Source: Actinomycetota bacterium (GTDB lineage Bacteria; Actinomycetota; Humimicrobiia; Humimicrobiales; Humimicrobiaceae). Taken from it: a stretch of 64,000 nucleotides of DNA. Within the stretch, counting starts at the first letter, position 1. Each line of letters opens with the position of its first letter. Below the pieces are notes generated by a model. That model ran no database searches, was not told where the DNA came from, and was given only the letters and a program-made list of their open reading frames with translations. Below are positions 52,192 through 56,576 of the stretch, piece by piece. Both the position numbers and the translations under genes were made by a program. The stretch is from positions 481 to 64,480 of the forward strand of contig JAQVDY010000004.1 in the NCBI GenBank assembly GCA_028698215.1, written 5' to 3'.

Positions 52192-52278
52192 GGGCGAATG
52201 GCGGAATTGGCAGACGCGCTAGGTTCAGGGTCTAGTGCTCGCAAGAGCATGGGGGTTCAAGTCCCCCTTCGCCCACCA
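52192..52278 (+). tRNA. tRNA-Leu(CAG), CCA encoded
   Basis: Acceptor GGGCGAA/TTCGCCC+ACCA; anticodon stem CTAGG/TCTAG with loop TT-CAG-GG; long variable arm; T-loop TTCAAGT. Confidence 0.97.
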
Positions 52279-52444
52279 AATCATTATGGTTTTTATGGGA
52301 ATAAGGGCAATGGATTATTGCCAAAGGATGGTTCTTGAAATAGTAGGCAGTGCATGTAGTCAATAAGTAGAAATAAAATACCTTGAGAGGTAATACTACA
52401 CATCTCAGAATAGGAAGAAGCCAAATAACAGTTTCCATAGTTGC

Positions 52445-53151
52445 TTGATTGCAACCAATCAATGATCAGTTTTTCTGTCTATTGCAGGGCAGTACTCTTG
52501 AATATGCCAATACAACACATAATCACCATAGATAAAGACGAGATCATCGCACAGAGCAAAAAAGCTTTGGATAAGTTTAACTTCTATAGGGATTTAAGAA
52601 CGGAGAAATAAAAATTGTTGATGTTTATAGCATTTCAACCAACGATTAACGGCAGAGGGTTTTACTGAAAACAAGAAGTTTTAAGTAAAAAGAAAGCAAA
52701 AAGCACAACGGTTTATGTCATCATGGAAACTCTGTTAAAAAAAGCAAATGAGGAAAAGCTGCCCAAACAAGCTGTAAATTTGGTTAAACTATTGTGTAGA
52801 AGCTGATTTTGCGTAATTAAGAATTCGACAAATTTGAAGTTGTAGGATATCCTTTTGATATCAGAAAAATAAGGGCAGCTAAGCTGTTCTTAAAAAAGGT
52901 GCAAACTGGGCGCCAAAAAGAGCGGGGAAGTGATGAGGCTTTATCCTCCCAAAGAAGACGGAATTTTTCAAAAACCTTGTGAGTATAATCATATTTCTAA
53001 TTTAGTGCTAGCACAACATGATCACTATGATGGTTTTAGTTATTCATATAGGATTAAAATAGAAAATATTTCTTTAATGGCAAAAATTATTGCTGTTGAG
53101 GCCACCGGTGATAAAATAATCAATGAAGATCTATACAAAAGCTGTGGATAG
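52445..53151 (+). pseudogene. Frameshifted remnant of a GGDEF + HD-GYP gene
   Basis: Collinear fragments in alternating frames: DQFFCLL (~52464), IMETLLKK (~52720), GYPFDIRKI (~52845), QHDHYDG...ENISLMAKIIAV (ORF 52930-53151). Confidence 0.65.
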
Positions 53152-53405
53152 GTAAGCGGCTATAAACAAAAAAATAAAAGTTCACCTATCCGGCTTGTTT
53201 TGAACCTATAGTGAGTTTTATTGACATTGTAATTGGGAAGAACTAATTGAGCAGTAGGTCTGTGCCTTAAGGTATGTACCTTATCATTCTAATTTAACCT
53301 ATTGATTTATCTTAAGCGGTAGGGGTAAATAGGAAATGGGTACATTGAGAATAAATATGCATTGTATTTCTATGCGTATCAGAAATCTGAGGGAGTAGAA
53401 CTGGT

Positions 53406-55421
53406 GTGAGAGAGAATAGAAGAGTTAATTGGTTCAGTAAATACTTAACCAACAATGGCAGGTATGACAAAGTTGATGCTTTATACAGAAAAGTATATGT
53501 CTTAAATGTTATTCTTACTATTATGCTGGTCATTTGCCTCCTTTTTGTTTTTATAGATATCGTCCTTTTTAGGATGTACGGCGCCGCCATAGTTAATGCT
53601 GCATCTGTTGTTTTATCCTTATTAACTTTAATATACTTTAAAAAGACAAATAATTATAAAGTTGCTGCTTATCTCTCAGTGGCAATTTTGTTTTTTATTC
53701 TAGCTGCCTTTTTTCAGGTTGTTCAGAATAAACACTACGCTTTCTATTGGCTCGCTATCCTTCCTCCTATTATATACTTTTTATTGGGTAAAAAGACTGC
53801 AAGGATTGCTTTGTGCATTTTTGGAGCTTACATGTTTTACTTTTTCCTATATAACAAAGCGGGTTGGAGTCCGGCAGAATTTGATAATCAGTCTGTTTTT
53901 AATATTGCAGGAGCAACCCTAAGCATAGTGTTGATGATAGCTTACTATGAAAAAAGTAGAAAAGAAGCATGGGATGAGCTAAGAAAAATAAATTTTCAAT
54001 TGGAGAACAGCCAGGATGAGCTGCGGTTGATTTTAGACTCAGCAGCTGAAGCTATTTATGGTGTCGACTTAAAAGGCAACTGCAGCTTCTGCAATAGAAG
54101 CAGTATTAAAATGCTGGGCTATAATAGTCAGGCTGAATTAATCGGCAAGAATATGCACTGGCAAATTCACCATACCACCAAGGACGGGACCCCTATTCCC
54201 ATTGATGAATGTAAAATTTTAAAAGCATTTATAAACGGTGAAGGTTCACATGTAGATGACGAAGTTTTCTGGCGTGCTGACGGCACTTCTTTTGATGTAG
54301 AATATTTTTCATACCCGCAAATTAGAAATGGAGAGATCATAGGCTCTGTAATAACCTTTATGGATATAAGTGAGCGCAAACAAAAAGAAGCAGAAATTCA
54401 ATATTTAAGCTGTTATGATACCCTCACTGGACTTCAAAATCGTAGATGTTTTGAAGAAAACCGTACAAAGTTTGATAACCAGGACAATCTTCCGCTTTCT
54501 ATTATTTCAGCGGATATTAACGGGCTGAAGATGACCAATGATATATTCGGGCATGCTGCCGGGGACGAGTTAATAAAAAAATCATCTAAAATTTTACTCC
54601 AGGCATGTAGGCAGGGCGATTTGGTTGCACGTGTCGGGGGTGACGAGTTTATAATATTTTTACCAAGAACAACTGGAGTAAATGCAGAAAAGATTATGGA
54701 TAGAATCAGGGCTGGATTCACTGATGCCAGGGTGGAAGCCATTAAATGCAGCATTTCTCTTGGTCTTGATACAAAAATAAGCACTGATCAATCGCTTGAC
54801 GAGATAATGGTTAATGCTGAAAATGCAATGTACAAAGACAAAACTATGAATCGAAAATCCATAAATAAGGACATTATTGATGCTATAATAGAAACCCTGC
54901 ATGCAAGAAACCCAAGGGAGAAACGACATTCAGCCAAAGTCAGTGAACTGTGCTACAAAATAGGGTCAGCTATGCTTCTTCCGGAAGCAGAGATTAGTAA
55001 ATTAAGCAGGGCAGGATATCTGCACGATATAGGGAAAATCGTATTTGACGATAGCATATTGTCCAAGGATTTTCTCTCAGATATAGAGCTAGAAAGAATG
55101 CAGCAACATTCGGTAGTTGGGTATAGGATTTTAAGTCTCTTTGATGACACGCTAGATTTGGCCGAATATATTTATGGTCATCATGAAAAATGGGATGGTA
55201 CCGGATATCCAAGACGGCTAAAAGGGGAACAAATCCCCTTGATTTCTAGAATCATTGCAGTTGGCGAGACTTATGATCGAGTGCTGAACAGAGGCGAACT
55301 TTCTTTAAAGAAACGGAAACAGGCAGCCCTTAAAGTAATCAGTAAGGGGGCGGGAACACAGTTTGACCCGAGGATTACTGAACTGTTTTTGCGCGTTATG
55401 GGTGAAAAAGAGGAGGTTTGA
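53406..55421 (+). CDS. Membrane-bound PAS-GGDEF-HD-GYP c-di-GMP turnover enzyme
   Basis: About five N-terminal TMs; PAS; RQGD I-site + GGDEF; HDIGK and HHEKWDGTGYP. Confidence 0.95.
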   Translation: MRENRRVNWFSKYLTNNGRYDKVDALYRKVYVLNVILTIMLVICLLFVFIDIVLFRMYGAAIVNAASVVLSLLTLIYFKKTNNYKVAAYLSVAILFFILAAFFQVVQNKHYAFYWLAILPPIIYFLLGKKTARIALCIFGAYMFYFFLYNKAGWSPAEFDNQSVFNIAGATLSIVLMIAYYEKSRKEAWDELRKINFQLENSQDELRLILDSAAEAIYGVDLKGNCSFCNRSSIKMLGYNSQAELIGKNMHWQIHHTTKDGTPIPIDECKILKAFINGEGSHVDDEVFWRADGTSFDVEYFSYPQIRNGEIIGSVITFMDISERKQKEAEIQYLSCYDTLTGLQNRRCFEENRTKFDNQDNLPLSIISADINGLKMTNDIFGHAAGDELIKKSSKILLQACRQGDLVARVGGDEFIIFLPRTTGVNAEKIMDRIRAGFTDARVEAIKCSISLGLDTKISTDQSLDEIMVNAENAMYKDKTMNRKSINKDIIDAIIETLHARNPREKRHSAKVSELCYKIGSAMLLPEAEISKLSRAGYLHDIGKIVFDDSILSKDFLSDIELERMQQHSVVGYRILSLFDDTLDLAEYIYGHHEKWDGTGYPRRLKGEQIPLISRIIAVGETYDRVLNRGELSLKKRKQAALKVISKGAGTQFDPRITELFLRVMGEKEEV

Positions 55422-55571
55422 ATAACCCATTATAGCAATTCTTTAAAAGTGCAAATAAATTTAGAATTTTCTTAAATAATAATCCGGGTATCTTATAAAA
55501 ATTGTGCAAATAACAATACTAAATTTACACACTCTTTAGACCAAGGGCAGGTATAAGCACTTATGCTAAAT

Positions 55572-55610
55572 AAAAAAAGCCCTGTATCTAGTACAGGACT
55601 TTTGTTTTTT
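55572..55610 (-). terminator. Intrinsic terminator, best formed on the minus-strand transcript (may be bidirectional)
   Basis: Stem AAAAGTCCTGTA/TACAGGGCTTTT with a U-tract on the minus strand; its G-U pair becomes a C-A mismatch on the plus strand. Confidence 0.75.
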
Positions 55611-55611
55611 A

Positions 55612-55653
55612 TTATTTAGTTTTTTTCTTACCTTTTGCTTTTTTGGTGCCCAT
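55612..55653 (-). CDS. Putative 13-aa Lys-rich micropeptide MGTKKAKGKKKTK
   Basis: SD GAGGTGA, ATG, tandem TAA TAA stops, with its own promoter and terminator. Confidence 0.55.
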   Translation of the reverse strand: MGTKKAKGKKKTK

Positions 55654-55690
55654 TCTCACCTCACTAAAGTTAGAATTAAATAATGAGCTA

Positions 55691-55719
55691 ATCATAGGCT
55701 CACCCCGGTTAAAAATCAA
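55691..55719 (-). promoter_or_regulatory. sigma70-type promoter of the micro-ORF
   Basis: TTGATT-17 nt-TATGAT on the minus strand. Confidence 0.6.
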
Positions 55720-55777
55720 TTATTATTTTTAAATTCAGATTTAAGTCAATATGTTATATTATTAAGGTAATCCTGAA

Positions 55778-55996
55778 ATGAAAAGGATAATATTAGATAC
55801 CAGAAAAAATAAAGATGTAAGCAGGCAGGGCATAGGCTGCGCCATCATGGTCATGGTGTTTTTAATTATTGCCTTGGTGGTGGCTATAGTTCAGCAAAGG
55901 GGCCTGGGCCTAATTATTACATTGGCAGTGATGGTTTTCGGTATAATTATCTTATATGCTTATATTTTTTTCAGGGTCACTAAAAAAAATAAATAG
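55778..55996 (+). CDS. Small two-TM hypothetical membrane protein
   Basis: 72 aa, two hydrophobic helices, basic termini; collinear with the next two genes. Confidence 0.55.
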   Translation: MKRIILDTRKNKDVSRQGIGCAIMVMVFLIIALVVAIVQQRGLGLIITLAVMVFGIIILYAYIFFRVTKKNK

Positions 55997-56026
55997 GTTG
56001 TACAAAAAATAGCAAGGAGCAAGGTA

Positions 56027-56383
56027 ATGACTTCTTTGGAGATAATAGGTCTGGTAGCAATTATTTTGATGTCAGCATTTTCTATAATAGCTATAATTTT
56101 AGCTGTTCCCATATTTAAGCTTTTATCTAAAGCAAACCGTATCATCGGAAGCGTTAGCGACCGGATAGACCCCATGGTTGGTGATCTCAATCTTATGGTA
56201 GGAAAGCTTAACGTGGAAATATCCTCTATAAATGATATTACCCGTAGCGCAGGCTCCATTGTGGAGCAGCTAGAAAAGATTATAAGGCTGGCCAGGATAG
56301 TGGTCACTAGCCCTATTATAAAAGTCATAAGTACCGGGGCCGGGCTAATAAGCGGTATTAAAAAAGCCAAGAACTCGGAGTAG
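56027..56383 (+). CDS. DUF948/YtxG-like single-TM coiled-coil protein
   Basis: N-terminal TM followed by a heptad-rich segment (KANRIIGSVSDRIDPMVGDLN...). Confidence 0.6.
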   Translation: MTSLEIIGLVAIILMSAFSIIAIILAVPIFKLLSKANRIIGSVSDRIDPMVGDLNLMVGKLNVEISSINDITRSAGSIVEQLEKIIRLARIVVTSPIIKVISTGAGLISGIKKAKNSE

Positions 56384-56396
56384 GGGATAGTGGTTT

Positions 56397-56576
56397 ATGA
56401 ATAAACGGGATGCAGGATTCATAATAGGCGGTGCTATAATTGGTGCAATTCTTGGTTTTATAATTCAAAAAAAAGGAATCACCAAGGTTATTGAACTGTT
56501 AAAAGGTAAAAAAACCATAAGTCCTAAAATTGTCGATTATTGGAAGCTATTAAGCCAAAAACTCGGCTGGGATTAA
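56397..56576 (+). CDS. 59-aa YtxH-like membrane protein (absent from the ORF track)
   Basis: Hand-translated MNKRDAGFIIGGAIIGAILGFIIQKKG...; Gly-rich TM; GGGGA SD-like site; follows the DUF948-like gene. Confidence 0.6.
   Translation: MNKRDAGFIIGGAIIGAILGFIIQKKGITKVIELLKGKKTISPKIVDYWKLLSQKLGWD

Follow-up and report, generated by a model that had tools for sequence, protein, structure and literature searches.

The ribosomal protein bL37 is located in the 50S subunit underneath the 5S rRNA tip. The reference form taken here comprises 24 aa (MAKRGRKKRDRKHSKANHGKRPNA; PDB 5o60 chain 3, against which the sequence was verified; NCBIfam models NF047428 and NF047429) and binds rRNA phosphates (PMC10085706). 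Other short polycationic proteins, namely bS22 (33 aa), eL41, bTHX and the non-annotated bL38, likewise went unnoticed by annotation and came to light only through cryo-EM or MS (PMC10085706, PMC10618245); none of them is shorter than about 24 aa, and they adopt helices or strands embedded in rRNA. On the minus strand of a 64-kb stretch of contig JAQVDY010000004.1 from an Actinomycetota bacterium (assembly GCA_028698215.1; hereafter, the window), a shorter open reading frame (ORF) of 13 codons can be deduced which encodes the peptide MGTKKAKGKKKTK with seven Lys residues. It resembles bL37 in being a tiny free-standing gene for a polybasic peptide in Actinomycetota that has long escaped annotation, and in an N-terminus of the type MA followed by K/R-rich residues. 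In contrast, bL37 is about twice as long (about 24 aa, with 32 positions in the Planctomycete model), rich in Arg and His and conserved in its C-terminal SKANHGKRPN, which is absent from the micro-ORF with its 13 aa in three species; moreover, bL37 is widespread in its group, whereas the micro-gene occurs in few species. When the micro-ORF was scanned within its 35-aa open frame, the bL37 models gave 0 families at E≤10, while with the bL37 of M. smegmatis as control they reached 51.8 bits, the cut-off being 30. Searches with Pfam, NCBIfam and bS22 did not match the micro-ORF either, nor was sequence or profile similarity to other small basic ribosomal proteins found. By analogy, the micro-peptide may work like the tiny basic ribosomal proteins without being a member of their families.

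A further likeness is to basic protein tails. Actinobacterial HU (HupB/MDP1) and histone H1-like proteins carry Lys/Ala-rich tails of the PAKKA/AKKA type, with which the micro-peptide shares a composition of K, A, T, G and P and, presumably, an electrostatic mode of DNA binding. These tails, however, are domains of larger proteins, whereas the micro-peptide would be a free 12- to 13-mer.

Direct reading and a consensus scan of the minus strand agree on a –35 hexamer TTGATT (55719-55714) and, after a spacer of 17 nt, a –10 hexamer TATGAT (55696-55691), from whose position a transcription start near 55684 and a leader of about 30 nt (55663..55684) can be predicted. The following Shine-Dalgarno (SD) sequence GAGGTGA (55662-55656), with its GAGG core 5 nt upstream of the start codon, is separated by 2 bases from the ATG at 55653. 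With its stop codon the ORF spans 55612..55653, reading GGC ACC AAA AAA GCA AAA GGT AAG AAA AAA ACT AAA after the ATG and closing with tandem stops (TAA at 55614-55612 and TAA at 55611-55609). Then, at a distance of 8 bases from TAA TAA to the stem, an intrinsic terminator follows (55568..55603) which consists of a 5′ arm (55603-55592), a loop (55591-55587), a 3′ arm (55586-55575) and the tract TTTATTT. The hairpin (55603-55575) reads AAAAGTCCTGTA-CTAGA-TACAGGGCTTTT and has 12 pairs, including one U.G, and a loop of 5. An earlier, sequence-only reading of this DNA had proposed precisely this minus-strand order of promoter, SD, ATG, 13 codons, TAA TAA, hairpin and T-run, all of which is present base for base and at the same positions. 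It had also considered the G-U pair of the hairpin to be specific for this strand. Indeed, in the plus-strand version the wobble turns into a C.A mismatch, leaving just a 7-pair stem in the scan, so that the argument for a terminator of the minus strand holds.

Taken singly, promoter-like sites are at chance level in this region (10 found in 2.3 kb versus 8.0 expected), the promoter of the micro-gene scoring 9/12 against the consensus. The window was scanned for four signals at once, in whose co-occurrence the earlier reading had placed its evidence: a terminator, an ATG-initiated ORF of 8-30 codons ending at most 25 nt away from it, a strict SD and a promoter-like site. In the entire 64 kb, exactly one such unit exists, the micro-gene, while the combination was found in 0/40 random 64-kb sequences generated with a first-order Markov model; ORF, SD and terminator alone came to 0.025 per random 64-kb sequence. 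Hence, co-occurrence of all four signals is beyond chance.

The informative relatives are the clade with 82% DUF948 protein identity to the window, represented by L101 (GCA_022396035.1) and L106 (GCA_034520345.1). Both are MAGs of other uncultured Actinomycetota species and carry the micro-gene unit at the syntenic position, where tRNA-Leu(CAG) is followed by the hairpin, then by the mini-ORF, which is encoded on the other strand, and then by the 72-aa/DUF948 operon. In L101 the ORF reads ATG GCA ACC AAA AAA TCA AAA GGC AAG AAA AAG ACA AAG TAA (MATKKSKGKKKTK) and in L106 ATG GCA ACC AAG AAA CCA AAA GGC AAG AAA AAG ACC AAG TAA (MATKKPKGKKKTK). Neighboring genes of the window and this clade are 70-75% identical at the DNA level, with a position-3 identity of 0.46-0.55 in the 72-aa, DUF948 and TreT genes; judged from these alignments, neutral sites are near saturation. 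Against this background, the SD GAGGTGA is identical at 7/7 positions and the terminator arms at 12/12 each, the first stop is kept (3/3) as are start and length of the ORF (31-32/39 identical), and both promoter hexamers, TTGCTT and TATTAT in the two relatives, agree with the window at 5/6 positions each. The promoter spacer is only 11/17 identical, albeit unchanged in its length of 17, the leader just 18/28 and the terminator loop 2/5. Functional elements are thus kept while the linkers vary, as one would expect if the transcription unit works. The terminator shows the features of its class, i.e., a G+C-containing stem plus U-tract with conserved arms and a varying loop, and SD, start, frame, length and stop are retained across species, as would be expected of a small protein gene, the exception being a copy with a 1-nt deletion in the contig L090. 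The sequence-only reading had suggested looking in relatives for the promoter-SD-ORF-terminator arrangement along with synonymous variation, which is what L101 and L106 display, and would have taken absent conservation of start, frame and SD as refuting its claim, whereas all three are kept in both.

For the coding signal, three independent intact sequences are available, amounting to one deep and one shallow comparison with 10 substitutions. Between the window and L101/L106, identity within the ORF is 0.92 at codon positions 1 and 2 but 0.54-0.62 at position 3 (Fisher test on codon positions, p = 0.03), and peptide identity is 0.85 versus 0.66-0.83 for three neighboring proteins. Among the three intact copies, 7/10 substitutions fall at position 3, for example in the codon of Thr12, which differs by species (ACT in the window, ACA in L101 and ACC in L106). 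Replacements are confined to residue 2 (G/A) and residue 6 (A/S/P), while no change is seen at Thr3, Gly8, Thr12 or any of the seven Lys. In simulations, an intact ORF with at most 2 amino-acid changes resulted from 7 random substitutions with a probability of 0.006 (one comparison), and over the 10 substitutions on both branches relating the three copies the probability was 0.001. This is the pattern of purifying selection at the codon level, albeit in a small sample, and invariant residues combined with drifting third positions suggest that the peptide itself is the product.

The region is under further constraints, which have to be weighed here. In L090, L101 and L106, the hairpin directly abuts tRNA-Leu(CAG), and in these relatives it is predicted to be bidirectional, doubling as tRNA-Leu terminator on the plus strand. 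Upstream, the micro-gene –35 box lies back to back with a plus-strand promoter-like site of the 72-aa operon (TTCAGA-17-TATTAT, 55734..55762), which belongs to the context and is not part of the micro-gene; the segment carrying it (55777-55734) is 34-35/44 identical to L101 and L106. Plus-strand terminator and adjoining divergent promoter hence contribute to the conservation of the region, and the 13 codons could be a chance ORF in a spacer that is retained for the tRNA-Leu terminator, for what precedes the 72-aa operon (its promoter or upstream region) or for the binding site of a regulator, the more so as Lys-rich ORFs easily arise in A-rich DNA and a frameshift is tolerated in L090. Such an origin, however, would account neither for the periodic substitutions and the kept length, start and stop, with the simulated probabilities of 0.001-0.006 given above, nor for an SD perfectly kept at the correct distance or for the G.U wobble favoring the minus strand. 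In addition, the other five frames of the same aligned block show 5-9 amino-acid differences versus 4 in the micro-ORF frame, and four of them contain stops. A chance ORF is therefore regarded as quite improbable. Among these frames, a plus-strand ORF of 29 aa (55643-55732) was considered as a candidate and rejected, as it shows more amino-acid changes and its open frame is no better conserved over the aligned block.

The frame of the micro-ORF is open further upstream, up to a TTG at 55719 (35 aa), and the –10 box within this stretch contains a further ATG in the frame, at 55695 (27 aa), an extension overlooked by the sequence-only reading. In favor of one of these longer ORFs being the true gene, the frame is uninterrupted in the window, GGGGTGAG is located 3 nt upstream of ATG 55695, and the JGI pipeline called the 27-aa gene on contig L107 (4586-4669), the non-conserved extension being the only variant picked by this caller. 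However, an in-frame TGA in L101 and a TAA in L090 close the extension, and both sequences lack the ATG, which in the window sits within the conserved –10 box. Furthermore, a strain SNP of the window species at 55693 (C>A on the plus strand; contig L096, run X15) converts TATGAT into TATTAT, which keeps the –10 box in its sister-clade version while turning ATG 55695 into ATT and thereby abolishing the start of the 27-aa ORF. In the DNA runs, which represent an almost clonal population, this SNP is the sole variant in the micro-gene region. With its extension not conserved, the 27/35-aa ORF was rejected and is deemed extremely improbable as the true gene. ORFs of fewer than about 30 codons are passed over by annotation pipelines and by most surveys of small proteins. 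In the NCBI annotation of the two MAGs, protein locus tags are consecutive across the site, with no gene between.

At the RNA level, folding of the predicted 118-nt RNA gives the terminator as main stable element plus weak 5′ pairings (fold z = –2.8), and in the three-species alignment the terminator helix is the sole conserved structure, the leader being without any. No Rfam family matched at the gathering threshold, and permissive thresholds only brought up sub-threshold, terminator-driven look-alikes of leaders and sRNAs. Logan contigs of four runs tentatively labeled as RNA and of one metatranscriptome are unstranded and of low depth; in the RNA-labeled runs X19 and X25, unstranded contigs cover the region at 2-7×, with similar depth for genes and spacers. 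A reading of the locus as a small regulatory RNA (about 115 nt), in which the ORF would be incidental or just stabilize the RNA, could be reconciled with the unit having its own promoter and strong terminator and with the fold z-score of –2.8, though the latter mainly reflects the terminator hairpin. Conservation of structure in the terminator alone, however, argues against a structured sRNA as well as against an attenuator with alternative pairings, and the lack of an Rfam family at threshold, the leader being the least conserved part, the strict conservation of SD and ATG, and the codon periodicity of the substitutions likewise make an sRNA very unlikely. For the sRNA alternative put forward in the earlier reading, structural support is accordingly limited to the terminator.

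A second non-peptide function would be that of a translation-sensing, attenuator-like leader, in which reading of the seven Lys codons tunes termination or read-through, so that the signal would be how far the ribosome has moved and the peptide would be irrelevant. The architecture fits, as the 13-codon ORF is rich in one codon family and ends 8 nt from the terminator stem, and the leaders thrL, hisL, pheL and pyrL (14-16 codons) similarly combine an SD, enrichment of one codon type and an intrinsic terminator directly after the ORF. The Rfam similarity to Thr_leader (RF00506), which is weak on either strand (minus, 22.0 bits; plus, 24.9 bits), is far under the gathering score of 55, however. 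Moreover, the known leaders are positioned upstream of a regulated operon on the same strand and form alternative pairings, whereas the micro-gene has neither a same-strand gene downstream, where tRNA-Leu in the ancestral layout (L090, L101 and L106) and a GGDEF gene in the window are antisense, nor a conserved antiterminator pairing, other predicted pairs being few and weak. With nothing downstream on the same strand the leader model is unattractive, and the stalling-sensor function that had been suggested for the A-rich Lys codons would have nothing to regulate. In addition, Thr3, Gly8 and Thr12 are invariant despite synonymous changes, which a Lys sensor would not need. A leader function is therefore considered unlikely, and the preferred reading remains a gene for the peptide.

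The exceptional copy is found on L090, a JGI contig of 1.1 kb that is closely related to L101, with 89-95% DNA identity in flanking genes. There, the micro-gene copy (157-260) lacks one A in an A-run and reads MATKNQKARKRPDN; restoring this A gives MATKKSKSKKKAR with unchanged stop. In a first pairwise MAFFT alignment, the homologous bases of L090 seemed to be read in another frame, but with L101 and L106 added the difference was reduced to a single 1-nt deletion. Besides, its –35 box is poor (TCATTT) and its SD weaker (AAGGTAA), the leader has lost 11 nt, another 4 nt are missing ahead of the stem, and the stem contains a mismatch. Such a copy looks like the outcome of recent decay and possible pseudogenization or, at least partly, like an assembly error of a low-coverage contig, meaning that either the micro-gene is dispensable in the L090 lineage or the contig is faulty. 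In five more distant loci (L001, L004, L006, L103, and L105; DUF948 homologs with 69-74% identity), both the hairpin and a Lys-rich mini-ORF are absent, while the 72-aa/DUF948/59-aa/TreT synteny is kept and tRNA-Leu(CAG) lies shortly upstream of the 72-aa gene in 4/5 of them. According to these comparisons, the micro-gene is limited to a narrow clade formed by the window species and the L101/L106/L090 clade. Its absence from the five loci argues against a core function, such as that of a universal ribosomal protein, and narrow distribution together with a decaying copy speaks for a function that is accessory and of recent acquisition, and against a core role in the ribosome. Two pattern scans of a JGI metagenome collection (one with the hairpin, one with SD plus first codons) gave no match; as the known JGI contigs were not matched either, the scanned collection evidently is without these organisms. 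One viral scan did not produce a match to the micro-gene. According to sequencing-run look-ups, the organism occurs in landfill, digester and wastewater metagenomes, and homologs of the DUF948 protein were labeled as uncultured Actinomycetota by their depositors.

In the window, the genomic neighborhood of the micro-gene deviates from that of its closest relatives. Divergent from it runs the 72-aa/DUF948/59-aa operon (55778-56576, plus strand), starting with the gene for a 72-aa protein with two TM segments (55778-55996) and continuing with that for the DUF948-like protein of 118 aa (56027-56383); this three-gene operon is convergent with a gene for a TreT-like glycosyltransferase (trehalose synthase), an arrangement which is syntenic in all relatives examined (L001-L107). 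On the other side, about 3.29 kb (52282-55571), flanked by AAT/AAAT, are inserted between tRNA-Leu(CAG) (52192-52278) and the hairpin when compared to the closest relatives, and the insert is present in every strain-level contig extending far enough upstream. Its cargo comprises a 72-aa ORF (52933-53151) and a MASE6-PAS-GGDEF-HD-GYP gene on the plus strand (53406-55421), convergent with the micro-gene; an integrase gene was not seen among the insert ORFs. The GGDEF gene has its best homologs in Clostridia MAGs (Desulfoscipio, with up to 74% identity), suggesting that it was acquired horizontally. The regions downstream of 80 GGDEF/HD-GYP homologs from GTDB genomes resemble neither the spacer nor the peptide, which shows that the GGDEF gene was inserted here rather than being the ancestral neighbor. 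In the 3′ flank of this gene, two minus-strand copies of TTATTTGCAC (55513-55504 and 55458-55449) lie ahead of an extended –10 box that is perfect, TGCTATAAT (55437-55429, minus strand), and points in antisense orientation into the GGDEF gene's end, and the ATG of a 41-aa antisense ORF (55430-55305) overlaps this box. Beyond tRNA-Leu, gene content varies among the relatives: L101 (1-4300) carries a resolvase gene, a GGDEF gene split into fragments and one for a PAS-GAF-HD-GYP protein, while L106 (1-4300) and the window have a PASTA kinase, which in the window is paired with PP2C. The surroundings of tRNA-Leu look like a hotspot of rearrangement and of c-di-GMP genes.

Taking these lines together, the locus likely represents a genuine micro-gene that is independently transcribed and translated. 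The earlier claim of a complete unit encoding a 13-aa peptide stands as far as the signals, the conservation and the synonymous variation in L101 and L106 are concerned, while its actual expression is a matter of prediction. In the proposed sequence of events, the sigma-70-type promoter TTGATT-17-TATGAT would give rise to an RNA of about 115 nt whose unstructured, A-rich 5′ part exposes the strong SD GAGGTGA and the AUG. The thirteen codons would be translated to MGTKKAKGKKKTK, and transcription would end at the strong hairpin 8 nt past the stop codons. With Gly or Ala at residue 2 of the peptide, removal of Met is expected from the specificity of Met aminopeptidase. The resulting 12-mer would be devoid of hydrophobic residues, its charge being about +7; monoisotopic masses of 1301.85 Da (GTKKAKGKKKTK) and 1432.89 Da (with Met) were computed. 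A peptide of this kind cannot fold or enter membranes alone. It would most probably bind electrostatically to a polyanion, candidates being rRNA or the ribosome, DNA and polyphosphate. It is tentatively proposed, as a possibility of rather low probability, that the peptide serves some polyanion of the cell as its dedicated structural ligand, for example as the smallest known ribosome- or nucleoid-associated protein with about half the size of bL37. Its gene would then rank among the shortest free-standing ones under purifying selection, having perhaps emerged de novo from the A-rich spacer beside tRNA-Leu in a recent ancestor of the clade.

In summary, the locus probably is an unannotated, lineage-restricted gene for a micro-protein. 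Judged from the comparison of a few sequences of uncultured organisms, it is best described as a variant of the small basic proteins that is confined to one lineage and, with 13 codons, distinctly short for a free-standing gene. A gene of 13 codons with its own promoter, SD, terminator and coding signature would lower the practical size limit for free-standing bacterial genes, and genes of such tiny size would be detectable by comparative sequence alone. Given its narrow distribution, it may also be a case of a gene born recently next to a tRNA gene. If the peptide binds to the ribosome or DNA, it would join the growing list of tiny lineage-specific basic proteins, such as bS22, bL37, and bL38.
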